DNA of 64,000 nucleotides from Candidatus Reddybacter sp. (GTDB lineage: Bacteria; Pseudomonadota; Gammaproteobacteria; Pseudomonadales; Porticoccaceae), in the NCBI GenBank assembly GCA_041277045.1, contig JBGFSY010000002.1, forward strand, positions 348,041-412,040, given 5' to 3'. Below, piece after piece: positions 2,644 through 18,803 of this stretch; the first letter of the stretch is position 1; each line of letters starts with the position of its first letter. The notes beneath the pieces were generated by a model. The model did no database searches. It had not been told where the DNA came from and saw only the letters and a list, made by a program, of their open reading frames with translations. The position numbers and the translations under genes are program-made.

Positions 2644-4136
2644 GTCGATTCTTTCATTCTATCGTAGCAATTCTTCGTTTATTCCGCTGTGTACACAAGC
2701 GGAGCTGCTTGCTGTTCACGCTGCTTGTCGTTACCGGTAGCGCCAATGCCATTGCTGATACCAATAGCGCCCCCGCAGAAATGGGCTTGCTGGGCAGTGC
2801 TATGTTGGCGCTCAATTTTAGCGATGGCCGCGATGAAATTATCGCGCCGCAATTACACAGCAAGGTAGATATTCATATTACCGGGCCCATTGCGCGGGTG
2901 AGGGTGGTGCAAACCTTCAGCAATCCCTCTGATGCCTGGGCCGAAGCGGTGTATACCTTTCCGCTGCCCCCGGATAGTGCTGTTGACCAGCTGCAAATGC
3001 ACATTGGCGAGCGAATTATTGAAGGTGAAATACAGGAGCGTGGAGCGGCGCATAAAATTTATCAGCAGGCCCGGCAGGCAGGGCAACAAGCTGCCCTCGT
3101 TGAACAACACCGGCCTAATATATTTAGTACTAAGGTGGCCAATGTGCCACCCGGCGAAGGGCTGACAGTGGTGCTTGAATATCAGCAGCAAGTGATGCGT
3201 CGGGGTTCGCGCTTTAGCTTGCACTATCCGATGAGTATTACGCCTCGTTACACGCCCAGCAATGGTCTCGCCGAAACAGGTTCAGTGGTCAATGATAAGC
3301 CCCTTACTCAGCTTGCCACCGCATTGGCTGGTGAAAATAATAATGCCACGGAAATTTGGCTTGATTTACAGGTGGGTTTTGAACTCGATGAGGTCGAAAG
3401 TCGCTACCACGCGGTGAGCAAAACTCGCGTCGATGACAGTCATTGGCAGTTGTGGCTTGATCCCGAAACACACGATGCTAATGCCGATTTTGTTGTTGAG
3501 TGGCAGGGGCGAGAATTAGCAGTGCCCCAGGCCCACATTTTCACCCAGGCTTTTGCCGGGCACGAATATGCCCTGCTACAAGTGATGCCGCCACAGGTAA
3601 AGCTTGAACAATATCGACAAGCCCGGGACATCGTTTATGTGATTGATACCTCGGGGTCGATGGGCGGGGAATCCTTGCGTCAGGCAAAGCGAGCTCTGCT
3701 ATGGGCTATTGAGCGGCTGGATAGAGAGGACCGCTTTAATATTATTGAGTTTAATTCCGAGAGCTGGTCTTTATTCGACACTGAGCGTGAGGCTAGCCCA
3801 GGCAATATCACGCGCGCCAGGCGATTCGTGAATGAGCTGGAAGCCCGGGGTGGCACTGAAATGCGTAAGGCACTGGATTTGGCTTTATGTGGCCCTTGTA
3901 CCGATAACAATCGCGCTGGACGCTTACGACAGGTTTTGTTTCTCACCGATGGCGCTATTAGCAACGAAGTACAGCTATTCGCTGCAATCAAAGCTCGGCT
4001 CGGCAATAGCCGTTTATTTACGGTGAGTATTGGTTCTGCACCTAACCGTTATTTCATGCGCAAGGCAGCGAAAATGGGGCGGGGAACTTTTGTACATATC
4101 GGTAAAATTAATGAAGTGGAGCAAAAAATAACGTAG
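2640..4136 (+). CDS. sortase target protein, N-terminal part (signal peptide + VIT domain + von Willebrand A domain), ending at an in-frame TAG
   Basis: Signal peptide LLFTLLVVTGSANA. VIT-like region (ITGPIARVRVVQTFSNP...). vWA MIDAS motif VIDTSGSMGG. The reading frame continues in the same frame after TAG 4134-4136. Confidence 0.8.
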   Translation: MSRFFHSIVAILRLFRCVHKRSCLLFTLLVVTGSANAIADTNSAPAEMGLLGSAMLALNFSDGRDEIIAPQLHSKVDIHITGPIARVRVVQTFSNPSDAWAEAVYTFPLPPDSAVDQLQMHIGERIIEGEIQERGAAHKIYQQARQAGQQAALVEQHRPNIFSTKVANVPPGEGLTVVLEYQQQVMRRGSRFSLHYPMSITPRYTPSNGLAETGSVVNDKPLTQLATALAGENNNATEIWLDLQVGFELDEVESRYHAVSKTRVDDSHWQLWLDPETHDANADFVVEWQGRELAVPQAHIFTQAFAGHEYALLQVMPPQVKLEQYRQARDIVYVIDTSGSMGGESLRQAKRALLWAIERLDREDRFNIIEFNSESWSLFDTEREASPGNITRARRFVNELEARGGTEMRKALDLALCGPCTDNNRAGRLRQVLFLTDGAISNEVQLFAAIKARLGNSRLFTVSIGSAPNRYFMRKAAKMGRGTFVHIGKINEVEQKIT

Positions 4137-4163
4137 CTATTTGAACGTATCGACGCACCGCTA

Positions 4164-4730
4164 ATGAATGACATTGAACTGCAATTAGCCGGTAAAAATA
4201 TTGACATCAGCCCGGTTTTAATTCCAGATCTCTATGCTGGAGAGCCCCTCATCGTAGCTATTAGAGCAGATGATTTGCCAGAGCAAATAATACTGCGAGG
4301 GCAGCGTCAGGGTGAGACCTGGCAGCAGACGGTGCCATTGGCCCTTGCCTCAGAAGGAGGTGGTATTCATGTTGTCTGGGCGCGAAAAAAAATCGAGTCA
4401 CTATTAGATGAAAGAGCAATGCAGCGTGATGATGAAAGCCGAGAAGATCTGCGTCATCAAGTGGTCGATATTGCCTTGAATCATCATCTGGTGACGCTCT
4501 TCACCAGTTTGGTAGCCGTCGATCAAGTATCGATTAGGCCTGAACTAGAAGCTATTGATAATCACCCCATCAATAGCAATGTACCAAAGGGCACGCAATT
4601 TGGTTTGGCGCGCACGGCAACGGGGATGACTTATTTTATCGGCACGGGGTTTGTTGTGTTGATCTTTGCTTTAGCACTCCTTTGGTTGTCACAGCCTTAC
4701 TCGCAAAATGTGCGACCTGATCTATGTTGA
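4164..4730 (+). pseudogene. C-terminal part of the same sortase target (stalk + sorting signal), cut off by the upstream in-frame stop
   Basis: Same frame as 2640..4136 (offset 1524 nt). The codons between the stop and the listed ATG read LFERIDAPL, so the sequence is continuous. The C-terminus has LARTATG, then a hydrophobic helix FIGTGFVVLIFALALLWL, then a short tail. Confidence 0.7.
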
Positions 4731-5338
4731 TGGTTAGAGCAAAAGCTCTGCAGACAGCGGGGGAGGTGAGGCTTGCGAGTAGTTTGAAATACCTTGGCCT
4801 TGTGTTGCTAGTTCTGGGTGCCATTTTGTGGATAAAAGGTGGCTATATTTTCCTTAAAGCTGAGCTCGGCCCATATTTAATTAATCGTGCCTGGCAACAC
4901 AGTATGGCCACTGGGGATAAATATAAACCCTGGGGCTGGGCAGATACCTGGCCCGTTGCTCAGATGCTGGTTCTCTCCCAAAATATTAATCAAATCGTAC
5001 TGGCGGGTGACAGTGGTCAAGCTCTGGCTTTCGGTCCGGGGCACACCTCGTCGAGTGCTCAACCGGGAGCTGATGGGCTGGTGGTTATTTCCGGCCATCG
5101 CGACACGCATTTTCTTTTTTTGCAGTATTTACAGGAGGATGAGCAGATAATTTTACAAAACTGGGAGGGGCAGCACACAGTTTACCGTGTTAGTAGTAGG
5201 CAGGTGGTCGATGAAGATGTTTTGATAGCGGCCGATAACAATATTCGAAGCCTGATGTTGGTTACTTGCTGGCCTTTTGATAGTACTGCAACTAATTCAC
5301 GGCATCGTTTTATCGTCCAGGCTCAGGTTGTTAATTAG
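4724..5338 (+). CDS. class GN (marine proteobacterial type) sortase
   Basis: N-terminal TM anchor. Catalytic His context ISGHRDTHF, catalytic Cys context LVTCWP, and a downstream Arg (NSRHRF). The start overlaps the target gene stop (ATGTTGA). Confidence 0.85.
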   Translation: MLMVRAKALQTAGEVRLASSLKYLGLVLLVLGAILWIKGGYIFLKAELGPYLINRAWQHSMATGDKYKPWGWADTWPVAQMLVLSQNINQIVLAGDSGQALAFGPGHTSSSAQPGADGLVVISGHRDTHFLFLQYLQEDEQIILQNWEGQHTVYRVSSRQVVDEDVLIAADNNIRSLMLVTCWPFDSTATNSRHRFIVQAQVVN

Positions 5339-5499
5339 ATACCTGAAGCAGGAATGTGGCACAAGTGAATGATTGTTATTTGATTTAGACATATTTGTAT
5401 AAAGTGAGATAGTGACAGAGTTACGCCTAATATCTTGTCTGGCGATGTTCTACCTCTGGATGCTGCAAAAATAGCTTTAATTTTGAGGGAAAGTAAACG

Positions 5500-6165
5500 A
5501 TGAGCACAGAAAATAACAACGATGATCGCGCAATGGCTGCCCAGCTTTCAAACCCTGAGGGTGAGCGTGGTATAGAGTTGGCGTCGAACATGAATAAAGC
5601 CAACGCCTTGGTAACAGCGTGTACCATTGACTGCCTTATTCCCGAAGCCGGGAAAAATATTGTAGAAATTGGCCCCGGCAATGGCATGTTGTCTTTTAGC
5701 TTAACTTATACCCTCGAGGGCGATGGTCATTATCAAGCCGTCGAGCGCTCTGCAGATATGGCACAACAAGTACGCGACAACTTGGCTGAATATGCTGAGT
5801 GTCAAATGACTGTTCACAATGAGGATTGCTTTGATGCGCCCATTGAAGACGGTTCCATCGATGGTATTTTCGGCGTCAATATTATTTATTTTATTGAAGA
5901 CATAGTTGCACTGTTTACCCTCTTTGATCGCTGGTTAAAGCCGGGTGGTCGAGTGGCCCTGGGTATGCGTACTTCAGATACCATGAAAGCCCAAAGTTTT
6001 ACACAGCACGGTTTTAAATTGCGTGAAAAAGAAGAAATAGAAGCGGCGATGACATCTGTCGGCTGGCGGCTGGCCGGTAGTGAATACTTTGAAGAAGATG
6101 ATATCGAACTGGAGGGGAAAATATTAAAAGTTGATGCTCTGGTCCTTTCTGCTAAAAAGATGTAA
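5500..6165 (+). CDS. class I SAM-dependent methyltransferase
   Basis: SAM-binding motif I IVEIGPGNGML and an acidic loop, with a Methyltransf_11-like layout. Substrate unknown. Confidence 0.7.
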   Translation: MSTENNNDDRAMAAQLSNPEGERGIELASNMNKANALVTACTIDCLIPEAGKNIVEIGPGNGMLSFSLTYTLEGDGHYQAVERSADMAQQVRDNLAEYAECQMTVHNEDCFDAPIEDGSIDGIFGVNIIYFIEDIVALFTLFDRWLKPGGRVALGMRTSDTMKAQSFTQHGFKLREKEEIEAAMTSVGWRLAGSEYFEEDDIELEGKILKVDALVLSAKKM

Positions 6166-9216: not shown

Positions 9217-9702
9217 TCAAGTGCACCCTAGCGCCCGGTCGGCCTCTGGCAACTGATATTGATTGAACACGTCTATGCCGTGCTGCTCGAGTAAAGCGAC
9301 GGTGACGCCAACCCCGGTAATTTTCTGCCGCGTAAAGCTGCCGTCGTAAATACGCGAGCTGCCGCAGGAGGGGCTGCTCTCGGTTAAAACCGCCACTTTA
9401 ATGTTGTGTTGCTGGCATAGCGCCAAGGCGAGTTGTGCGCCTTTTTCAAAGGTGGCACTGACCTCATCGCCATTTTCGAGAACTACCTTAGCAGTGCCAG
9501 CCAGTACATCGTAGCCAGTGCCTGCGGTAATTTCTGCGGGTGCGCGAGGTATGCTCATACCGGCATCAACTTCCGGGCAAACGGCGATAATGCGCCCCTC
9601 AGCCATCCAGCGCTCGAGTAGATTATCTGTAACGGCCAGGGTTTTTCCGTCATAGCGAACCTTCTTACCCAGCAGGCAGGCGCTGATCAAGATTTTTTCC
9701 AT
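9217..9702 (-). CDS. DUF523 family protein (TudS-like thiouracil desulfurase family)
   Basis: MEKILISACLLGKKVRYDGK... N-terminus and conserved Cys pattern (CPE..., SPSCG) typical of DUF523. Confidence 0.65.
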   Translation of the reverse strand: MEKILISACLLGKKVRYDGKTLAVTDNLLERWMAEGRIIAVCPEVDAGMSIPRAPAEITAGTGYDVLAGTAKVVLENGDEVSATFEKGAQLALALCQQHNIKVAVLTESSPSCGSSRIYDGSFTRQKITGVGVTVALLEQHGIDVFNQYQLPEADRALGCT

Positions 9703-9745
9703 GGGGCGTCTCGTTCTTCTTTAGTCGATGAGTATCAATGGCCCG

Positions 9746-10387
9746 CTAGGCGGGTGGTGTAAAGGCTTGTCGTTTGGCCTTTACCACCTCGCGGCTGGCA
9801 CAGCCCTCCATGTGATCATTGACCAGCCCCATCGCCTGCATAAAGGCGTAAGCGGTGGTGGGGCCAAAAAATTTCCAGCCGCGCTTTTTCAGATCCTTAC
9901 TCAACTGTTGTGAGGTCTGGGTAATGCTGGGGATGGGGTGATTGTACTCGCCCTTACCAATATGAATTTCACGGGTCTGGGGTTCCCATTGCCAAATATA
10001 GGTGGCGAGGCTGCCAAATTCATCGACCAGCTCAAGGGCGCGCTGGGCATTGTTGATCGTCGCCTCGATTTTGCCGCGATGGCGCACAATACCAGTATCC
10101 TGTAGCAGCTGGGCGACCTTATCCTCATCAAAGAGCGCGACTTGCTTGAAGTCGAAGCCCGCGAAGGCGGTGCGGAAGTTTTCACGCTTGCGCAGGATGG
10201 TCAGCCACGAAAGTCCGGATTGGAAACCCTCCAGGCAAATTTTTTCAAACAGTTGAAAGTCATTGGCGCTGGGTTGGCCCCATTCCTGGTCGTGGTAGCG
10301 CTGGTAGTCTTTGTCATCCTTGCCCCACGAGCAGCGGGTAATGCCATCGTCATAGGTGCGTAAATAGTTATTTTGTGGTTCGGACAT
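9746..10387 (-). CDS. tag: DNA-3-methyladenine glycosylase I
   Basis: RCSWG...YHDQEWGQP...LFEKICLEGFQSGLSWLTILRKRENFRTAF, the canonical Tag signature. GGAGG SD upstream. Confidence 0.85.
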   Translation of the reverse strand: MSEPQNNYLRTYDDGITRCSWGKDDKDYQRYHDQEWGQPSANDFQLFEKICLEGFQSGLSWLTILRKRENFRTAFAGFDFKQVALFDEDKVAQLLQDTGIVRHRGKIEATINNAQRALELVDEFGSLATYIWQWEPQTREIHIGKGEYNHPIPSITQTSQQLSKDLKKRGWKFFGPTTAYAFMQAMGLVNDHMEGCASREVVKAKRQAFTPPA

Positions 10388-10804
10388 GGTTTTGTGCCTC
10401 CTCGGCTGTTAGGCCGGTTAGCGGAGAAAAGCTGGCAGCGTATTGTTTTTGAGCAAGGCTGTCAGGTGTCGCGAGTACGTCTAATTCTATCTTTTTCGGT
10501 ACAGGTGAGGGAAGCAGAAAACTGGGTCGCGATAGCGACTTATTGGAAGATGTGGAAGATGCTGGTTTTGCCTTTTGAGCGTGCCATGAGCTGTGGCTAG
10601 GAATATAAACAGGCCCCACAGCGTCAGTCACGATCTATTATGAGTTGCTGTATTATTTTTCGACGGTGGCAGAATATCGCTGCCAACATGGGGCAAGGGT
10701 CTGTGGTATCCCAATTTTGCAAAAGTATATGGAAGGCTTCCTGGGTTGTACTTGGGCAGTAGTCCCCGCACGAAGGTGATTGGATATTTGCTCACTTGCA
10801 CCTA

Positions 10805-10827: not shown

Positions 10828-11283
10828 GTGTTGACGGTGAAGCTGGCTTCTCTTACCCCCGCGTGCGTGCGCACGACAGTATTACTTCCGCTCTATCTCA
10901 GCCGTGTGGCGGCGGGTTTCCCCAGTCCGGCGGATGATTATCTCGATGGTGGCCTGGATCTTAACGAGCATTTAATCGAGCATCCGGCGGCGACCTATTT
11001 TGCCCGTGCCGAGGGTGATTCAATGATTGAGCTGGGTATATTTACTGGCGACCTGTTAGTTATTGATCGCGCTGTGCAGGCGGTGGATGGTGATGTGGTG
11101 GTGGTTGCCGTCGATGGCCAGCTCACCATTAAAGTGTTGGATCTGGCCCACTCCCGTTTATTGCCCGCCAATAAGTTGTACCGGCCCATTGAGATATCGC
11201 CAGAGTCCCAGGTTGATATTGAGGGTGTGGTGCTTCATGCGGTGCATCATTTAAAGGGTGCTGGAAAGGGCGCGAATCTGTGA
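10828..11283 (+). CDS. umuD: translesion polymerase V accessory subunit UmuD (LexA-like self-cleaving S24 peptidase)
   Basis: AAGFPSPADDY...HPAATYFARAEGDSMI...DGDVVVVAVDGQLTIK aligns with E. coli UmuD, including the Ser/Lys dyad context. The true start is probably GTG 10837 (AGGTG SD), because 10828 lies 3 nt after the LexA box. Confidence 0.85.
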   Translation: MLTVKLASLTPACVRTTVLLPLYLSRVAAGFPSPADDYLDGGLDLNEHLIEHPAATYFARAEGDSMIELGIFTGDLLVIDRAVQAVDGDVVVVAVDGQLTIKVLDLAHSRLLPANKLYRPIEISPESQVDIEGVVLHAVHHLKGAGKGANL

Positions 11284-12539
11284 TTGGCCTGTGTGATATG
11301 CGCAGTTTTTACTGTTCCTGCGAAAAGGTATTTCGCCCTGATATTCGTGACCGGGGCGTGGTGGTCACCTCCAATAATGACGGTGTGGTGGTGGCGCTGG
11401 ATGACAGGGCCAAAGCGGCGGGTATTAAAAAGTTTGAGCCCTATTTTAAACAGCGCCAGCGGATTGAGCGCGCCGGTGTGTTGGCCTTCTCCAGTAACTA
11501 TGAGCTTTACGGTGAAGTCAGTGGGCGGATTATGGCAACTCTGGCCAAGCACGCGCCTAGCGATATTGAGGTGTATTCGATTGATGAATGCTTTATCGAT
11601 TTAAGTGCGTTGCCTCGGGCAGAATTAAAAACCTTTGCCGCCATGCTGCGCGACACCATCTGGCAGCAGCAGGGCATAAAAATGGGTGTGTCTATTGCGC
11701 CGACTAAAACCCTTGCCAAGCTGGGGCAGTGTGCGACCAAGCTCTTTCCGCAGATTGAGGGTGTTTGCGTACTTGAGTACCCGGCCCAGTGGCAGTGGTT
11801 AGCGGCGCGGGTGGATGTCAGTGAGGTCTGGGGTATCGGTCGCAAACTGACGAGAAAGCTCAAGGCCAGGGGTATGAGCACCGTGGCAGATTTGTCACAG
11901 ATGACTAAAGCCGATGCCCAGGCCCTGCAGGGCATCACTCTGCTGCGTACGGTGCGCGAGTTACAGGGCGAGCCCTGTATTGATATGGATTGTCAGCCGC
12001 AGCCGAAACAGAACATTATCTCCAGTCGCTCCTTTGGTCAAAAACAGACTTGCCTGCAGCCCTTGCAGGAGGCGGTGAGTCACTATGCGGTGAGAGCAGG
12101 GGTTAAGCTCAGGGCGCAGTCATCGCTGTGCTTTCGCCTCTCGGCCTGGATACAAACCAGCGCCCACGACGCCAACCCCTATGCCGATGAGTTGTCGGTG
12201 AACTTGCCCGGTGGCACGGCCGATAGCCGGGAGCTATCCAGAACGGCCGTCGCGCTGGTGGCCAGGCTTTATCGGCCGGGTTACAAGTACGCCAAGGCTG
12301 GGGTGATGCTGCAAGATATTCGCCCCGAGCAGTTTGCCCAGCAAGATTTACTGGCGCCCCGCTCGGAGAACGCAACTCGTTTAATGCGGGTGGTGGACGG
12401 CGTGAATCAGCGCTTTGGCTCGGGGGCCATCAAACTGGCCCGCCAGGGCGGTGAGAGTGGTTTTGCCATGAAGCGGGCCATGAAGTCGCCCAGTTATTTG
12501 ACGCGCTGGCATGAGATCCCACGCATCAGGCTTGGCTGA
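11280..12539 (+). CDS. umuC: Y-family DNA polymerase V catalytic subunit UmuC
   Basis: MIGLCDMRSFYCSCEKVFRPDIRDRGVVVTSNNDG...FSSNYELYGEVSGRIM...IEVYSIDECFIDL. GTGA overlap with umuD. Confidence 0.9.
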   Translation: MIGLCDMRSFYCSCEKVFRPDIRDRGVVVTSNNDGVVVALDDRAKAAGIKKFEPYFKQRQRIERAGVLAFSSNYELYGEVSGRIMATLAKHAPSDIEVYSIDECFIDLSALPRAELKTFAAMLRDTIWQQQGIKMGVSIAPTKTLAKLGQCATKLFPQIEGVCVLEYPAQWQWLAARVDVSEVWGIGRKLTRKLKARGMSTVADLSQMTKADAQALQGITLLRTVRELQGEPCIDMDCQPQPKQNIISSRSFGQKQTCLQPLQEAVSHYAVRAGVKLRAQSSLCFRLSAWIQTSAHDANPYADELSVNLPGGTADSRELSRTAVALVARLYRPGYKYAKAGVMLQDIRPEQFAQQDLLAPRSENATRLMRVVDGVNQRFGSGAIKLARQGGESGFAMKRAMKSPSYLTRWHEIPRIRLG

Positions 12540-12588: not shown

Positions 12589-13026
12589 CTCAACGACTAC
12601 TTCCGTGACTATGAGCCCAGTCTTGGACGGTATGTGCAGAGTGATCCGATTGGGCTTGCCAGGGGGGTGAATACGTTTGGGTATGTTGGGGGGAATCTTG
12701 TTGGGTTGGTTGATCCGTTTGGACTTGTTTATGGGTTAGGGGGTAATCGATACGGCCAAGCTGTTATGGTTAAATGGTTAACGGTTCCGTCCGGTGTTCC
12801 AAATCAATCACTTGGTAACGCACTTAGCGATGATTGTCCTAAAATTTGTCAGATAGACGTATTGGCAGGTAGCATTGTGGTGGATATAGCAATAGGTGCA
12901 ATCCCTCAAGCTAAAGCTGCACAAATACTAGGTAAGGCAGTTTTATCAACGGGGTCGACAGCTTCTATAGCGGTTTCGTTGGCAAGTTGTGTTCAAAAAG
13001 GTGAAAACAAGCAGTGTCAGAAATAG
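12589..13026 (+). pseudogene. orphan RHS-family C-terminal fragment (end of RHS core + about 99-aa variable toxin tip)
   Basis: The frame opens just after TAG 12586-12588 and reads LNDYFRDYEPSLGRYVQSDPIGLARGVNTFGYVGGNLVGLVDPFGL, the RHS repeat-associated core end with the DPxGL boundary. An unrecognised small-residue/hydrophobic tip follows. There is no RHS repeat body upstream; umuC ends at 12539. Confidence 0.6.
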
Positions 13027-13072
13027 TTTTGAAAGGCAATATGCCTCTCAATAAAACTGTCCGTTATTTTGA

Positions 13073-13154
13073 GGGGAGCTCAGTCTGACCCCTTGATCGA
13101 TAAAGATATTAAAAATACGATTTTGAAATCAATGGGCTCAGACTCGATTGATTT
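13073..13154. repeat. REP-like palindromic units
   Basis: GGGGAGCTCAGTCTGACCCC (13073-13092) and AAATCAATGGGCTCAGACTCGATTGATTT (13126-13154, 8-bp outer arms). Both are related to the element at 17545-17587. Confidence 0.4.
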
Positions 13155-13358
13155 ATAACAAAGAAGATTTAAACGTTCCTATAATTCGTGAAAAAATATG
13201 CACGCTTTTTTTTACTGGTGAAATATGCGCCTCTATTTTGTTTTTGGCCTACATGGTCGCATCAGAAAATAAAGTGGTTAGAGTCGTTGATTTAATAAAC
13301 TTATGTGGCAATTAACCTGTATAGGACGCCCGCTAAAATTTGTTTCTAACCGCGCCTT

Positions 13359-13540
13359 GTGCCCCACAAAGCCTTAACGTATTACGCGTTAACGGGGGTG
13401 GAAAGAGACGGCGCGATTGTCAAAGCCGATGCCAGCGGTGGTTACAGCATGAAGGAAATAGGCGCTCATTTTGGCCTGCACTATTCGCGTGTGAGTCGAA
13501 TTGTGGGGGAAGGCAAAAGGCAAGACTTGCCCCCCCTAAT
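13359..13540 (+). pseudogene. C-terminal remnant of a transposase-type protein with a DnaA-C-like HTH (Y1/IS200-like family as I recall it)
   Basis: ERDGAIVKADASGGYSMKEIGAHFGLHYSRVSRIVGEGKRQDLPP resembles the C-terminal HTH tail of a widespread gammaproteobacterial transposase family. No catalytic N-terminal part is present. Confidence 0.4.
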
Positions 13541-13629
13541 ACGCTCTATTGTTGTTCTTCGTGCTCAATGCTTCTATGCTTGATCCTATGCCGTTCTAGC
13601 TCGTCCACAATACCAATGAGGATCACGCG

Positions 13630-15003
13630 ATGATACGCTTAAATCGAACCATCATTTACATAACGATAATTAATTGTGTCCTGTTTTTAACGGCTTGTTC
13701 CAAAGAGGTAGATAAAGCCGATGCAGCGTCAGATATTACAAATATTGAGGCCACTGAAATAACCCGGCCAGGCAATAGTGAGCGCGAAGCCAGCCAGGGG
13801 GTCGTTTTACTTCGAGGTCTGCCCACTTTGAACACCCAGCACAGCATCGCCATTGTGGAGCTTGATCCTGACGCTGAGAACTTTGGAGATATTCTCGAAG
13901 AGTTTGAAATCACCGGTTTTGAAGCACCCCTGCACCATCTTTATTACAGTCCCACAGGGCGTCTATATGCCACCGGTCTGGATCCGAAGTGCAGCCTGGC
14001 TGAAGTCAAGTTGGCCAGAGACGTATCCGGAGCGCCAGTGATTAATGGCCTCGATTGCCTCGACACCCAGGGCCAGCAAGTGGGTGAAGATATCATGTGG
14101 CACAGCGTCAACGGCACACAATATATGTTTGTTACGTTTATGGGCGGCACTGGCATCGAGCAGCCCGATGGCGGATCCCTTGGCGTTTTCAATCCCCAGA
14201 ACAACGCTATTATCAAGATTATTGAAGCCAGAAAAAGTCAGGTCGGGGCTGGCGAGCCCTACATAATGTATCCCCATGGTATTTCCGCCTACGCCGATAG
14301 AATGGTGATCAGCTCAACTATCCATGCCGATCTGGTCACAGGGGTGGGCAATGCCATCACGGTGATCGACTTAAACACATTTACGCCGATTCAAACCATT
14401 GAGGTTGAAGATGCCAAGCCAGTTGGTTTTCCCTCCTCTCCAGTTGAGGTGCTATTTCTGCGCCCGGATATTGTCGCCGGTGTTGAACCTGCAGTGCTGG
14501 TAAACACTATGTTTGGCTTCGAGACCTGGAAAATCCCCTACGACCCGACAAGTAAGATTTTTGGCAGCCCCGAGAAACTTTATGATGGCGGCGAGCAGGG
14601 CACTGGTGTGCCTCTTGAGTTCTATGGCAACGACAGCGAACTGTTTATTAGCCACGCTATTCCCGGTGTCGTTAAAAGATACCAGCTCGCGAGTTTGCCA
14701 GCACTCGTGCCAGCAGGCCCGGATATTAAGGCCGAACTGGGGGCCCACCACATGATTTTTTACCCGGCAAAGTCAGGTAAAAAACTGATTGCCGTGCAGA
14801 ACAATCTGTTGAACTTGGGCAATATTGCAGACAATGATCCGACCGACCTGGATTTTATTGCCAAAGTGAATGACCACTCCATTACCGTCCACGACCTGGA
14901 AACGGGTGCCAGGTTAGCCAGTATCAATTTTAAGGAGAAGTACAATAAAGGCATAGATAATATTGAAGCCTTATTTGGCTCGGGTTTTGTGCATCATCAT
15001 TGA
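13630..15003 (+). CDS. exported lipoprotein, remote SBP56 (selenium-binding protein / methanethiol oxidase MtoX)-like beta-propeller
   Basis: Lipobox LFLTAC and a good SD (GAGGA). By-eye collinear similarity to SBP56: IAIVELDPDAENF..APLHHLYY vs VDVDPKSP...ELHHSGW; DRMVISSTI vs HNVMISSEW; PVEVLFLRPD vs PLEIRFLHNP. Ends in VHHH. The CDS call is solid; the family call is tentative. Confidence 0.5.
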   Translation: MIRLNRTIIYITIINCVLFLTACSKEVDKADAASDITNIEATEITRPGNSEREASQGVVLLRGLPTLNTQHSIAIVELDPDAENFGDILEEFEITGFEAPLHHLYYSPTGRLYATGLDPKCSLAEVKLARDVSGAPVINGLDCLDTQGQQVGEDIMWHSVNGTQYMFVTFMGGTGIEQPDGGSLGVFNPQNNAIIKIIEARKSQVGAGEPYIMYPHGISAYADRMVISSTIHADLVTGVGNAITVIDLNTFTPIQTIEVEDAKPVGFPSSPVEVLFLRPDIVAGVEPAVLVNTMFGFETWKIPYDPTSKIFGSPEKLYDGGEQGTGVPLEFYGNDSELFISHAIPGVVKRYQLASLPALVPAGPDIKAELGAHHMIFYPAKSGKKLIAVQNNLLNLGNIADNDPTDLDFIAKVNDHSITVHDLETGARLASINFKEKYNKGIDNIEALFGSGFVHHH

Positions 15004-15046
15004 GCCTTTGCCAGGGGTTTAATTCCTCCTAACACAATACAGCTTT

Positions 15047-16237
15047 GTGAAAATTGCTCTTTTAAGTATGGTGACAGCCTTGGCTATCACCGTGGTCGTG
15101 GTACTTCTTAGGTTTGCCGATAGCGAGCCAGCTCAAACTCAGCTTCCGCAAATACAGCCCCTGGCGGGATTTTCAGCCCCCTTTGTATTTGGCCGTTTTG
15201 AGGTGCCCGAGGATAACCCTCTGACACAGGCGGGCGTCACGCTGGGGCGTCGACTGTTCTACGACGTTCGCTTATCGGGTAATAATAAAATTTCCTGCGC
15301 TACCTGCCATCTTCAGCGTCTTGGTTTTAGTGATGGCAAAAGCACGGCACAAGGCATCTCCGGTAAAGCGCTGGCTTTTAATAGCATGAGTCTCGCCAAC
15401 CTGTTGTGGGGGGCTGAGCATTTCTTCTGGAACGGTCGGGTAGATTCCCTCGAGCAACAGGCTTTGCTACCTATACAGAATGCCGACGAGATGGCTCAAA
15501 ACCTGGATGATCTTGTCCTGGAGCTAAAAGCCGATGCCGAATACCGTCGCCTGTTCAAAAATGCCTACGGTGCTATCAGCTCAGCCAATATTGCCAAAGC
15601 GCTTGCGTCCTTTGAGAGAACGCTGGTGTCAGCTAATTCTAAATATGATCAATATCTGCGCGGTGAGGTGGCGCTCAGCGAACAGGAAGAGCTGGGTAGA
15701 AAGCTCTTTGTCGCTCATCCAGACGTAAAAACGAGTTTGCGTGGTGGCAATTGTATCGATTGCCACAGTCAATTTCTCACCAGTGGCTTTAAGCCCCGGT
15801 ATGACGGTTTTTCGAACAATGGCCTTGATGGAGAAAGCGAGCTGTCACCAGGCTTACAGGCGGTCACGAAAGACCCCGCTCATCGCGGTTTTTTTAAAGT
15901 ACCGAGCTTGCGCAATATCGTAGTGACCGCGCCCTATATGCACGATGGCAGGTTTGCGAGCCTTGAAGCAGTGCTCGATCATTACAACGAGGGCATACAG
16001 ATAAGCAGTACGTTGAGTCCGCTGATCATGGAGGCGGATAATATAGAGCAGGGTATTGACGCGCAGGTTGGCCTCAACCTTACAGCAAAGGAAAAAGCGG
16101 CGATTATTGCTTTTATGCATACTCTGACCGACCATCAGTTTTTGAGTGACGAGAAGCTTTCAAATCCCTTTTTATCTAAGGCCTTTACTTCCAGCACAAA
16201 AGCATTTAACCCCATAGAGGCCCGGCCCAGTGAATAG
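15047..16237 (+). CDS. di-heme cytochrome c peroxidase family enzyme (MauG/MbnH-like)
   Basis: Two heme c motifs, CATCH and CIDCH. CCP_MauG signatures GFSDG, FWNGR..LEQQALLPI, PSLRNIVVTAPYMHDG. N-terminal signal/anchor. Confidence 0.8.
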   Translation: MKIALLSMVTALAITVVVVLLRFADSEPAQTQLPQIQPLAGFSAPFVFGRFEVPEDNPLTQAGVTLGRRLFYDVRLSGNNKISCATCHLQRLGFSDGKSTAQGISGKALAFNSMSLANLLWGAEHFFWNGRVDSLEQQALLPIQNADEMAQNLDDLVLELKADAEYRRLFKNAYGAISSANIAKALASFERTLVSANSKYDQYLRGEVALSEQEELGRKLFVAHPDVKTSLRGGNCIDCHSQFLTSGFKPRYDGFSNNGLDGESELSPGLQAVTKDPAHRGFFKVPSLRNIVVTAPYMHDGRFASLEAVLDHYNEGIQISSTLSPLIMEADNIEQGIDAQVGLNLTAKEKAAIIAFMHTLTDHQFLSDEKLSNPFLSKAFTSSTKAFNPIEARPSE

Positions 16238-17021
16238 CGCGATGAAAATAATCGGCAAGAAGCGATGTTTATTAAGTACGAGGGTGAGCGGTATACTGCT
16301 GGTAAGTCTTTTATTCCCCGTGAGCCTCATGCTGACTGGATGTGCTCCACAAAATAGCAGTGAAACACAATCCCTGACGCTAAAATTTGAGGCGTTTGTC
16401 GGCTCACAAGCTCTAGCTTTTAATCGTATTCAATACGAAAATCCCGGCGGCGGAGGGCAATACAAGGTTCGTGATTTCCAGTTCATTATCAGCAATATTA
16501 AATTGCTCAGCGAGACTGGAATTTATGTCGAAGCCGACAGCTATCATATTGTCAGGTTCGATAACGCAGATAAGAGCTATACGATGGTGCTAGACAATAT
16601 TCCACTCAGGGATTACCAGACAATAGTGTTCTCCATTGGCGTCGACCCGGCTGCAAATAGCTCAGTGCAATCTATTGGCGATCTGGATCCCAATAGCCGC
16701 ATGGCCTGGAGTTGGGATGTTGGCTACAAATTCATTCTTTTTGAAGGCGGCCTCAGTCGCGACAATATACTGTCTCCGCTCGTCTACCATGTTGGTTTTA
16801 ACGAAAACTATAAAGTCCTTCCATTTTCCATAAACCAGGCTAACTCAAGTCAGGAGTTGGCGCAGTTAATTTTCAAGGTAGATATCGAGAGCGTGTTTGC
16901 GAGTGTTAATGTCGTCGATATGGCGGCGCTTCCCAGCGTGAAATTTGATAAAGACGATGCAAGGCTTATCGCTGAAAATTACGCAACCATGATCACTTTG
17001 AAAAGCACTATTCAGCAATAA
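16230..17021 (+). CDS. MbnP-like (WxW motif) exported lipoprotein, putative metal-binding partner of the di-heme enzyme
   Basis: Lipobox LMLTGC. FEAFVG...F......Y.N..GG.Y.V.DFQFIISNIKL and MAWSWDVGYKFILFEGG resemble the MbnP family. 8-nt overlap with the preceding gene; ATG 16242 is an alternative start. Confidence 0.5.
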   Translation: MNSAMKIIGKKRCLLSTRVSGILLVSLLFPVSLMLTGCAPQNSSETQSLTLKFEAFVGSQALAFNRIQYENPGGGGQYKVRDFQFIISNIKLLSETGIYVEADSYHIVRFDNADKSYTMVLDNIPLRDYQTIVFSIGVDPAANSSVQSIGDLDPNSRMAWSWDVGYKFILFEGGLSRDNILSPLVYHVGFNENYKVLPFSINQANSSQELAQLIFKVDIESVFASVNVVDMAALPSVKFDKDDARLIAENYATMITLKSTIQQ

Positions 17022-17166
17022 GTTGATAGTGAAGGGTAGTTACGAGTCGGCAGTATAAAAATATTATAACCTGAGGTGTAGTAGCTAAGACTTGGTTTGG
17101 CAGTTGCGGAAGCGCTAAATTAGCCCCTAAATCCATCAAAATAAACGTTTCTTCTGGGCATAGCGC

Positions 17167-17280
17167 ATGGCTAAAATCAGCTTTGTCGAAGCCGAATATA
17201 CCCATAAACGTTACATAGCGAGAGTGCTTGGCCGCATTTAATCGACAGGTGCACCACAAGCTTGTCTGGACACCTTATAG
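17167..17280 (+). mobile_element. IS5-family transposase N-terminal remnant
   Basis: MAKISFVEAEYTHKR... matches the characteristic IS5-group N-terminus (..SF.EAEY..KRK.TRRE.FL..M..VVPW..L). It continues with two in-frame stops as VLGRI*STGAPQACLDTL*. The rest of the element is absent. Confidence 0.5.
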
Positions 17281-17427
17281 ATGTGTTTGGTAATTCAACC
17301 ATTTTTTCGCTTGGTATAAGGTGGCTTGTTGTCCTTACCGTGATATGAAAAATAGACTTTAAAGTGGACTTAAATATAAAGTAAGGATGTGCAACGAGGG
17401 CGTGTATACAGTAGCAGCCGATGTCGC

Positions 17428-17504
17428 TGGTCGGAATGAGAGGGTTTGAACCTCCGACCCCTGCCTCCCGAAGACAGTGCTCTACCAGGCTGAGCTACAC
17501 TCCG
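17428..17504 (-). tRNA. tRNA-Pro (anticodon CGG)
   Basis: The reverse complement CGGAGTGTAGCTCAGCCTGGTAGAGCACTGTCTTCGGGAGGCAGGGGTCGGAGGTTCAAACCCTCTCATTCCGACCA folds as a cloverleaf. Anticodon loop TTCGGGA, encoded CCA. Confidence 0.9.
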
Positions 17505-17544
17505 AACTATTTTATGATCGATGTGGCTTGGAGGCAAAGTCCCG

Positions 17545-17587
17545 AAATCAATGGGGTCACGGGGGTCAGACTGACCCCCCCCGATTT
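17545..17587. repeat. REP-like palindromic element
   Basis: AAATCAATGGGGTCAC-GGGGGTCAGACTGACCCCC-CCCGATTT. The central 19-nt stretch is a perfect palindrome (17561-17579). It shares the AAATCAATGGG(G/C)TCA motif with 13126-13154. Confidence 0.45.
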
Positions 17588-17750
17588 AACGCTTGATTAT
17601 TGGTGCGGACGATCTAGGGGAAAAGGGGGTGTTTATAGAGTATTGCCAGTGGCTTTATTAGTAAGGGTTTGCAGTTTGTTCAGCCAACAATAGCAGCTGA
17701 CAATTGTTCATGCCTGTGTTCGTCGCAACTTCTGGCAGGGTGCGCCTAGC

Positions 17751-18431
17751 TTAGGTGTGCAGCCCACACTCTAAATGTTCCGCCGCTTTGGTGGGGTCGT
17801 TATATTCCATTTCACTGGGCAGGCCGTATTCGAGCAGGTAGTCGACCAGGTTCATGGTGGTGCAGTGAAAGCAGGGGGCAACCTTGGTGGTTGCGCGGGG
17901 TGCATCCCAGGTGAAGATATTTTGTGACTTCCTGAATTCGGTTTCTTCGCGGCGAATACCGTTAATCCACAGGTCGGGCTTTAATTCACTAAAGGCCCGC
18001 GTGAAAGGATCCAGTTTGACGATTTTTGTAAACTCAGCGTGTTCAGCGGTGCCAATTTCAGGCACGCCTTTATAGCGTGCCTCAAGATGAGCCGCTGAAA
18101 GAGCGGGGTGAAAAACCTTCAGGTTTAGATCCAGGTCTTTCACCAGCTGGTCGACAAAGCGATAGGTGGCAGCCGTATTAAAGCCGCTGTCACACCAGAC
18201 TACAGGCGTGCCGGGGCGCACCGTCTGCACCATGTGTAGCAGGACGGCAGAGTAGGCAGAAAAACTGGTGCTGATAATTGGCTGCTTGGCGGCATCGAGC
18301 GCTTTAGCAAGAATATCCATCGGTGATGCATCGGCCATCGCTAAATTGGCTACGCTGAGGTCAAACAAGGCTTCTCGCGTTGTTTGCGGGGCATCATCAA
18401 GGGTTGGCTTCTTTGCAGCTACAAGGCTCAT
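17751..18431 (-). CDS. cysH: phosphoadenosine phosphosulfate (PAPS) reductase family protein, CysH-like
   Basis: STSFSAYSAVLLHMVQTVRPGTPVVWCDSGFNTAATYRFVDQL...LNLKVFHP...EARY is collinear with E. coli CysH. C-terminal ECGLH motif. No Fe-S CC..CxxC motif. Confidence 0.7.
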   Translation of the reverse strand: MSLVAAKKPTLDDAPQTTREALFDLSVANLAMADASPMDILAKALDAAKQPIISTSFSAYSAVLLHMVQTVRPGTPVVWCDSGFNTAATYRFVDQLVKDLDLNLKVFHPALSAAHLEARYKGVPEIGTAEHAEFTKIVKLDPFTRAFSELKPDLWINGIRREETEFRKSQNIFTWDAPRATTKVAPCFHCTTMNLVDYLLEYGLPSEMEYNDPTKAAEHLECGLHT

Positions 18432-18726: not shown

Positions 18727-18803
18727 TGGTGCACTCGGAAGGATTCGAACCTTCGACCGCCCGGTTCGTAGCCGGGTACTCTATCCAGCTGAGCTACGAG
18801 TGC
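18727..18803 (-). tRNA. tRNA-Arg (anticodon ACG)
   Basis: The reverse complement GCACTCGTAGCTCAGCTGGATAGAGTACCCGGCTACGAACCGGGCGGTCGAAGGTTCGAATCCTTCCGAGTGCACCA is near-identical in architecture to E. coli tRNA-Arg(ACG). Confidence 0.92.

Follow-up and report, generated by a model that had tools for sequence, protein, structure and literature searches.

A conserved three-gene cassette joins a divergent MbnP/MbnH-type pair to an unannotated beta-propeller family

In a 64,000-nucleotide (nt) stretch of the genome of Candidatus Reddybacter sp. (contig JBGFSY010000002.1, positions 348,041 to 412,040; hereafter the window) three consecutive genes on the forward strand, here called g1, g2 and g3, encode a beta-propeller lipoprotein, an exported di-heme enzyme and a protein of the MbnP family (Table 1). 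The spacing between g1 and g2 is 43 nt. The genes g2 and g3 overlap by 8 nt, which is valid solely if g3 begins with the GTG at 16230; the alternative start, an ATG at 16242 that corresponds to the NCBI annotation, yields a protein of 259 amino acids (aa) and lies 4 nt past the g2 stop. Whichever g3 start is used, the three genes are tightly coupled. An earlier interpretation of this DNA from its letters alone (the sequence-only reading) had described an operon of three same-strand exported genes with an 8-nt overlap and two lipoboxes, LFLTAC and LMLTGC. The open reading frames (ORFs), the 43-nt gap, both lipoboxes (Cys23 of g1 and Cys38 of g3) and the export signals, which can be read from the sequence of all three proteins, are as it described them, whereas the overlap becomes a 4-nt gap if the ATG implied by NCBI is used. 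The NCBI entries for the identical proteins name g1 a "hypothetical protein" and g3 an "MbnP family protein". We have high confidence in the anatomy and the conservation of the trio as described here.

Table 1. Coordinates, in window numbering, of the three genes and of the sequence features discussed in the text
Feature	Position	Strand	Remarks
Gene 1 (g1)	13630-15003	+	457 aa, lipoprotein beta-propeller
Gene 2 (g2)	15047-16237	+	396 aa, exported di-heme c enzyme, MauG/MbnH branch of the bacterial cytochrome c peroxidase family
Gene 3 (g3)	16230-17021	+	263 aa, membrane-anchored MbnP-family protein
g1 signal peptide and lipobox L-T-A-C	13630..13698	+	lipidated Cys23 at 13696-13698; read from sequence
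g1 His102-His103	13933..13938	+	invariant in relatives of 27-43% identity; aligns with the His-His (HH) of SBP56/MtoX (R. pomeroyi H88/H89)
g1 G-E-D-I-M-W	14086..14103	+	E153 and D154 invariant in the wider family; W157 invariant in orthologs
g1 His455-His456-His457 tail	14992..15000	+	present in 30/30 orthologs; terminal His near-invariant in the wider family
g2 heme motif 1, C84-A-T-C-H88	15296..15310	+	>=95% conserved, 58 orthologs
g2 heme motif 2, C236-I-D-C-H240	15752..15766	+	>=95% conserved, 58 orthologs
g2 H299 (P-Y-M-H-D-G) to H312-Y313	15941..15985	+	H299, H312 and Y313 >=95% conserved (58 orthologs)
g3 M158-A-W160-S-W162 (W-x-W motif)	16701..16715	+	invariant in orthologs
Non-coding leader of g1	13027..13629	+	~600 nt; weak promoter-like site 13312-13339; helix-turn-helix (HTH) remnant ~13389-13541

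The three genes are inherited as a single unit. One genome per species was scanned, and relatives of g1 with 59-77% identity turned up at 65 loci, in Gamma- and Alphaproteobacteria, Acidobacteriota, Gemmatimonadota, Verrucomicrobiota, Acidimicrobiia, Limnocylindrales, Binatia and Latescibacterota; the cassette is present in at least nine bacterial phyla, Actinomycetota and Chloroflexota included, and its cultured carriers comprise Thalassotalea sp. ND16A, Simiduia aestuariiviva, Kordiimonas lacus, Bowmanella dokdonensis, Aliiglaciecola litoralis and Ruegeria lacuscaerulensis. The order g1-g2-g3 is kept in 57 of the 58 genomes with enough downstream DNA to assess it, a co-conservation far beyond chance. 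The sole exception is a Bryobacterales metagenome-assembled genome (5893-7694 of locus L062), in which a transposase gene of the IS6 family (DDE_Tnp_IS240) cuts g1 at about residue 353 and homologs of g2 and g3 are missing. We rejected this locus as an example of a solitary g1, given that the gene is truncated there by an insertion sequence. Among the assessable loci in this identity range, an intact g1 was never seen without the pair formed by a MauG/MbnH-type enzyme and an MbnP-family protein (hereafter MbnPH).

The linkage reaches beyond these close relatives: the genes for P0122 (42% identity to g1) and P0140 (28%) are likewise followed by CCP_MauG and MbnP genes, and the di-heme genes of both cassettes diverged in parallel with the propellers. 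Since propellers this distant are still paired with the same partners, the linkage between g1 and MbnPH is old. In a divergent cassette with a propeller 42% identical to g1 (locus L077) a second CCP_MauG gene (9462-10679) follows the MbnP-like gene and is only 39% identical to the first. Over 50 complete cassettes the mean pairwise identity is 73% for g1, 65% for g2 and 48% for g3; the propeller is the most constrained member of the trio, which fits the role of a functional end-point. Other distant g1 relatives lack MbnPH but carry cupredoxin and DUF1264 domains as fusions or have a cupredoxin gene next door, a second and independent hint at copper or redox chemistry. Fusions to DUF1264 occur in P0142, P0144, P0151 and P0163, with an additional plastocyanin/azurin-type cupredoxin in P0151, and a cupredoxin gene lies beside a distant relative at 1797-2078 of locus L075. 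The "YWHHH" of the DUF1264 region aligns with the C-terminal "FVHHH" of g1.

In its AlphaFold2 (AF2) model (pLDDT 79.9, pTM 0.80) g1 consists of a signal peptide, a disordered tether (residues ~24-50) and a seven-bladed beta-propeller (~55-447); the lipobox recurs in 27 of 30 orthologs. The top Foldseek match of the model is 2ECE, the SBP56 (selenium-binding protein 56) of Sulfolobus, with an alignment over the full length (E 2e-11, TM 0.59, 474 aligned columns). YncE, AztD, BtuG and the propeller subunits of methylamine dehydrogenase (MADH) and quinohemoprotein amine dehydrogenase (QHNDH) rank behind it with TM scores of 0.4-0.5, the MADH heavy chain and the QHNDH subunit at E ~3e-8 to 1e-7. 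The comparison of this gene product with SBP56 folds, as proposed by the sequence-only reading, thus returned an SBP56 structure as the best match in the PDB.

The sequence of g1 tells less of this kinship. The Pfam model SBP56 (PF05694) reaches 13.7 bits (E 0.028) against a cutoff of 34 and covers residues 57-105 only, and a scan of NCBIfam gave no match. For 27 of 30 orthologs SBP56 is the sole Pfam match, below threshold in every case (best E 6.9e-6). Direct sequence searches of the PDB returned noise or the N-terminal blade of 2ECE only, and it took a predicted structure to reveal the kinship; with a broader g1 profile the E value of 2ECE improved from 0.034 to 7e-4. An hhalign comparison with an alignment of 25 true sequences of the methanethiol oxidase MtoX, run locally with low mact (a global run aligned 11 columns without meaning), was collinear but weak: E was 0.005 across 277 columns and 0.009 across 396, at probabilities of 5-7%. 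The g1 family comprises 835 clusters at 90% identity, nearly all of which are named "hypothetical", and a single UniRef entry bears the automatic name "Methanethiol oxidase". Searched against 1.84 billion representatives, the family profile finds 130 proteins, which form one tight cluster with a few divergent full-length relatives. Canonical SBP56 proteins are absent from these matches, bar the borderline bridging protein P0144, a divergent g1 relative (E 1.8e-35 with the g1 profile) that passes the SBP56 model with 34.7 bits over model positions 18-342. Hence g1 is a remote relative within the SBP56 superfamily and founds an unannotated propeller family, a new branch of the superfamily for which neither Pfam nor NCBIfam holds a model.

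Membership of g1 in SBP56/MtoX proper was rejected, both on the Pfam score (13.7 against 34 bits) and because only two of the four copper histidines proposed for MtoX appear to be kept. The collinearity with SBP56 that had been noticed by eye is borne out at the level of the fold (2ECE, E 2e-11, TM 0.59), whereas the sequence score stays below threshold. Likewise, the label "SBP56/MtoX-like" is appropriate for the shared fold and the shared HH, but goes too far for a protein that misses the Pfam threshold, appears to retain half of the proposed copper histidines, has a conserved residue set of its own and is never found beside SCO1/SenC.

This residue set is well defined. H102, H103, E153, D154, H216, E273, H373, H374 and Q390 are invariant in g1 relatives down to 27% identity. 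The protein contains two tryptophans, W157 and W300, both invariant in orthologs, and the histidine C-terminus pointed out earlier recurs in each of the 30 orthologs as an HHH tail. In MtoX four strictly conserved histidines have been proposed as copper ligands: H89, H90, H140 and H412 in Hyphomicrobium, and H88, H89, H141 and H424 in Ruegeria pomeroyi (Eyice et al. 2018, PMC5739008). The H102/H103 pair of g1 matches the HH of MtoX in every alignment made; the third and fourth positions are occupied by D154 and E446 in the weak full-length alignment (E 0.009), with H158 and the C-terminal histidines nearby as further candidates for these positions. In the profile alignment the invariant H216 and H373/H374 of g1 have no counterpart in MtoX, and the invariant Trp-rich motifs of MtoX were not found in g1.

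The invariant or near-invariant residues H102/H103, E153/D154, H216, E273, E330 and H373/H374 form, in the g1 model, one set on the innermost strand of each blade, at the start of the first strands of successive blades (101-106, 149-160, 215-221, 271-277, 328-333 and 372-379). The start of the innermost strands is where propeller enzymes have their central-channel active site. As modelled, g1 therefore probably possesses a distinct hub that binds metal.

The second protein belongs to the MauG/MbnH-type di-heme enzymes. It scores 194 bits with Pfam CCP_MauG (PF03150; cutoff 25.6), and its best NCBIfam model is that of the MbnH family, TIGR04039, with 265.6 bits, which is under the cutoff of 362.85; the MauG model TIGR03791 reaches 180.2 bits. 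In searches of the PDB, MbnH 6E1C was found at 8.4e-58, canonical peroxidases at ~1e-32 and MauG at ~1e-25, and 6E1C is the closest solved relative of g2. BLAST gave 37.7% identity and 211 bits to MbnH, compared to 32% and 149 bits to the di-heme enzyme encoded in the mtoX operon of R. pomeroyi, a validated one. A Tyr axial heme ligand at the position equivalent to Y313 marks MauG-type enzymes, whereas peroxidases have Met. Tyr313 of g2 lies 14 residues past His299 and corresponds in the alignments to a Tyr of MbnH 6E1C ("IYSEG") and of the MtoX-linked enzyme ("FYNAG"); judged by published work on MauG, it would be the axial ligand of the second heme. W128 in the FFWNGR of g2, which was tested as the Trp between the hemes, is conserved among the 58 orthologs. 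An MbnP-family gene adjoins g2 in the window and in 57 loci.

The partner encoded by this adjoining gene, g3, matches Pfam MbnP (PF20243) with 136.1 bits (E 1.7e-39, cutoff 27) over model positions 1-182 of 189, and scores 41.9 bits with NCBIfam TIGR04052, below the cutoff of 140. The only significant Foldseek matches of its AF2 model (pLDDT 79) are the six chains of MbnP 7L6G (E 5e-8 to 1e-6, TM 0.44-0.50), the next match having E 0.04. A phmmer search of g3 against the PDB gave no match, and a profile of 13 g3 orthologs reaches 7L6G at the WxW motif only ("SRMAWSW" against "SGMAWNW", E = 1). M158, W160, W162, H106 and H187 are invariant; a conserved cysteine was not found among 55 orthologs, and the cysteines of g3 itself are confined to the signal region. 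While the lipobox is kept in 5 of 30 orthologs, an N-terminal hydrophobic anchor is present in all 30. Given the Pfam score, a fold match to 7L6G alone and the invariant motif together with the missing conserved cysteines, g3 represents a divergent MbnP-family branch without the four-Cys motif. In MbnP, the WxW residue Trp174 is converted to kynurenine in an MbnH-dependent manner, and the product forms a copper site with His, Met and water (PMC11951088). By analogy, W160 is likely the tryptophan of g3 that is converted to kynurenine.

On these points the sequence-only reading was largely right. It had recognized g2 as a MauG/MbnH-type enzyme with the two heme motifs CATCH and CIDCH, an assignment that is confirmed by the CCP_MauG score and by 6E1C as closest structure, and g3 as MbnP-like with a W-x-W, which agrees with the invariant W160-S-W162 and a Pfam score of 136 bits against 27. 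The profile searches that it proposed place g2 and g3 above the cutoffs of the Pfam models CCP_MauG and MbnP, but leave g1 below that of SBP56, and the proposed survey of gene neighbourhoods returned the trio in 57 of 58 genomes. A fold match of the first protein, an MbnP match of the third and the co-conservation of all three, the lack of any of which it had named as evidence against itself that could be sought in silico, were all found.

The best explanation for these observations is that the trio constitutes a self-contained, horizontally mobile module of three proteins in the cell envelope. By analogy with MbnH and MbnP, the di-heme enzyme g2 would draw on H2O2 or O2 as oxidant and turn Trp160 of g3 into kynurenine, and the kynurenine would complete a His/Met/kynurenine copper site in g3. 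Copper-loaded g3 would then serve the propeller, much as SCO1/SenC serves methanethiol oxidase, most likely by delivery of copper to the hub of g1; g1 would be the end-user, an oxidoreductase or a metal-handling protein. The conversion of Trp160 by g2 is the best-supported step of this mechanism, as judged from the characterised pair. The role of end-user is assigned to g1 because no intact copy of it was seen without the pair, and because it is the most conserved member and has a hub of histidines and carboxylates of its own. Three observations lead us to infer the hand-off of copper: the obligate linkage, the residues of the hub and the resemblance to the mtoX-senC-mauG operon. The complete scheme, in which g2 matures g3 and g3 hands copper to the g1 hub, is an analogy that we put forward tentatively. 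More doubtful is its extension, according to which the g1 family would be a new class of envelope metalloenzymes whose hub metal centre, possibly multinuclear copper, could be assembled only via an MbnH-matured kynurenine-copper chaperone, with Trp157 perhaps modified too.

Several points weigh against this scheme. Copper in g1 is something that we purely infer, and a site of histidines plus carboxylates would be no less suitable for Fe, Mn or Zn than for Cu, given that two of the four MtoX copper histidines are Asp and Glu in g1 according to the weak alignment. The clustering of the hub residues was deduced from the secondary structure of the model, not from its coordinates. A copper-responsive regulator or operator was not found near the trio. 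Moreover, both g2 and g3 fall under the strict NCBIfam cutoffs for MbnH and MbnP, and g3 lacks the four-Cys motif, which makes kynurenine-copper chemistry in this pair an extrapolation.

Alternatively, g2 might act on more than one partner. If g1 were a second substrate, Trp157, four residues past the Glu-Asp pair, or Trp300 could be oxidised to a cofactor of the hub, as MauG does for methylamine dehydrogenase. The two candidates are the only tryptophans of g1 and are both invariant in orthologs; W157 is also kept in the divergent but trio-linked P0121, P0122 and P0140, whereas in most relatives that lack an MbnPH neighbour this position is occupied by Tyr, Val or Phe. The sample is small, however, and P0133 keeps the Trp despite having no MbnPH neighbour. 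The two di-heme genes of the L077 cassette could mean one enzyme per substrate, yet a single enzyme is enough in 57 cassettes. A role of MauG in the maturation of MtoX has been proposed (Eyice et al. 2018, PMC5739008), but the proposal of a tryptophan tryptophylquinone (TTQ) in MtoX is itself unproven. On balance we consider a second substrate unlikely. A stable heteromeric enzyme in the manner of MADH or QHNDH, with g1 as large subunit and g3 carrying a cofactor installed by the MauG-type enzyme, would fit the strict co-inheritance of the trio. Its list of parts equals mauB/mauA/mauG, and the MADH heavy chain and the QHNDH propeller are among the fold matches of g1 (E ~3e-8 to 1e-7). The large subunits of these enzymes are without a conserved catalytic hub, though, while g1 has one and is the most conserved protein of the three, and the fold of g3 is that of MbnP and not of a TTQ or cysteine tryptophylquinone (CTQ) subunit; we regard a heteromer of this kind as distinctly improbable.

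The lipid anchor, the long tether and the flexible HHH tail of g1 would suit a chaperone that captures a metal or ligand and passes copper to or from g3 for uptake or detoxification, and AztD, BtuG and YncE, the next-best fold matches behind 2ECE, provide precedents for such a protein. But no transporter is conserved beside the trio, and an identity of 73% across phyla would be unusual in a protein that does no more than bind; to us this possibility appears as slight as that of the heteromer. The least supported of the alternatives, and a very improbable one, is that g1 is an MtoX-equivalent, copper-dependent oxidase of methanethiol, thiols or sulfide, as the sequence-only reading had suggested. 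SBP56 is indeed the best fold match, the HH motif is common to both families and one UniRef entry carries the name "Methanethiol oxidase". However, g1 fails the SBP56 threshold of Pfam, its profile finds no true SBP56 apart from the borderline bridging protein, the weak alignment shows only two of the four proposed copper histidines as kept, the Trp-rich motifs of MtoX are missing, and SCO1/SenC is not present. Nothing that we found points to thiol or sulfide oxidation.

The genes that flank the trio vary among genomes. Clustering of 1360 flanking ORFs from 66 loci revealed no fourth conserved gene; generic signalling domains occur in 9 of the 66. Neither SCO1/SenC nor a regulator nor any transporter, be it a TonB-dependent receptor, an ABC system or a P-type ATPase, is conserved beside the trio in the same loci, and the flanks in the window contain no SCO gene. 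Scans for promoter-like sites and terminators around the trio gave background levels, promoter-like matches being no commoner than in shuffled sequence. Nothing convincing emerged from scans for Fur, Zur, CueR, CopR, CsoR and OxyR boxes, nor from a search for 8-mers shared upstream of the Alteromonadales loci.

Upstream of g1 in the window, the reading frame at 13389-13541 (EIGAHFGLHYSRVSRIV) has a weak helix-turn-helix match (HTH_28, E 4.5e-4) and resembles a remnant of a regulator or transposase. It is preceded by a 130-aa ORF (12634-13026) without a Pfam match that starts with DPIGL...DPFGL-type motifs; these are reminiscent of the last part of an Rhs/YD-repeat core with a short C-terminal domain behind it, and the ORF is possibly an orphan Rhs toxin tip. 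Directly upstream (10828-12539) lies a translesion polymerase pair, umuD-like (Peptidase_S24) and umuC-like (IMS family, DUF4113). An IMS-family polymerase is likewise found upstream of the trio in a Gemmatimonadota locus (L004), which is probably a coincidence. Just downstream of the trio, tRNA-Pro(CGG) (17428-17504) and tRNA-Arg(ACG) (18727-18803) are encoded on the minus strand, with a gene for a PAPS-reductase domain (17751-18431, minus strand) between them, and the GC content is 0.465 in 16001-18000 compared to ~0.52 elsewhere. The tRNA genes and the drop in GC downstream, together with the scars upstream, suggest that the region is an insertion hotspot. High identity across phyla, variable flanks and scars of mobile elements fit a horizontal spread of the trio. 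In locus L003 the trio lies between two genes for PQQ-repeat propellers (4092-5849, 13679-15379), genes for Ser/Thr kinases and one for a cytochrome c, a context seen in no other trio locus.

MbnP and MbnH have been characterised biochemically, yet their physiological purpose is unclear, chiefly in the many bacteria that make no methanobactin. The cassette supplies a divergent MbnPH pair with a strictly co-inherited client or partner, which has 73% mean identity across phyla and a plausible metal centre, and as a consequence the purpose of MbnPH becomes testable. If the hub of g1 were indeed assembled via g3, the function of MbnP/MbnH outside methanobactin producers would be to insert copper into one particular client enzyme. 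Neither the MbnPH pair nor the mtoX-senC-mauG operon is new, while we found no description of a cassette in which a divergent MbnPH is combined with a new propeller family. The sequence-only reading had likewise known of no three-part arrangement of this kind, and full-text searching of the literature returned none, although a mention is possible in the neighbourhood analyses of the primary MbnPH papers (Kenney 2019 JBC; Manesis 2021 PNAS; Manesis 2023).

Among known systems, the MbnP/MbnH "metallo-mystery pair" (TIGR04052/TIGR04039, GenProp0940; 7L6G/6E1C of Methylosinus trichosporium OB3b) resembles g2 and g3 in the adjoining genes for an exported di-heme enzyme and a Trp-rich partner with a WxW. 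Met and His are conserved near the motif, MbnH is the closest solved relative of g2, and the fold of g3 matches only MbnP. In contrast to this pair, g2 and g3 score below the NCBIfam cutoffs (265.6 versus 362.85 and 41.9 versus 140 bits), g3 is without the four-Cys motif and has no sequence match to 7L6G, deposited as a "four-Cys motif protein", beyond the WxW, and the trio has the di-heme enzyme before MbnP, no MbnT-type TonB receptor and an obligate propeller as third gene. In methanotrophs MopE/CorA and their di-heme partners (MCA2590/CorB) likewise combine a kynurenine-containing copper protein of the surface or periplasm with an adjacent di-heme peroxidase-like gene, but the copper protein has another fold and no propeller partner has been described (PMC3621798, PMC11951088).

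Other parallels concern the propeller. YncE, the zinc chaperone AztD and the B12-binding lipoprotein BtuG have the same general fold as g1 (TM 0.4-0.5), and BtuG shares the lipid anchor and AztD the handling of a metal; however, they match less well than 2ECE, show no sequence relationship and are not linked to MbnPH. Methylamine dehydrogenase likewise unites a propeller (the heavy chain MauB), a small Trp-bearing protein (the TTQ light chain MauA) and a MauG-type maturase, but g3 has the MbnP fold and not that of MauA, g1 has a conserved hub of its own and the other mau genes are absent. The operon mtoX-SCO1/senC-mauG is known from Hyphomicrobium sp. VS and from Ruegeria pomeroyi (SPOA0269-0271; Eyice et al. 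2018, PMC5739008), and the R. pomeroyi reference operon carries a SCO gene. There, too, the first of three genes encodes a seven-bladed propeller of SBP56 fold, the others a copper-handling protein of the periplasm and a MauG-like di-heme enzyme, and the HH of the propeller is common to both systems. In the trio, on the other hand, g1 is remote from MtoX (hhalign E ~0.005-0.009) and is a lipoprotein with an HHH tail, the MbnP-like g3 replaces SCO1/SenC, and g2 is nearer to MbnH (211 bits) than to the MtoX-linked enzyme (149 bits).

The parallel with mtoX-senC-mauG suggests that a propeller, a copper chaperone and a MauG-like enzyme form a general pattern. The sequence-only reading saw the trio as a fusion of the two known pairings, SBP56 with MauG and MbnP with MbnH. 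The MbnP/MbnH-type pair of this proposal is present, but the propeller belongs to a new family and not to SBP56/MtoX; since g1 is only remotely related to SBP56, has conserved residues of its own and is not accompanied by SCO1/SenC, the trio is not a literal fusion of both pairings and is better described as an MbnP/MbnH-type pair to which a new propeller family has been attached.

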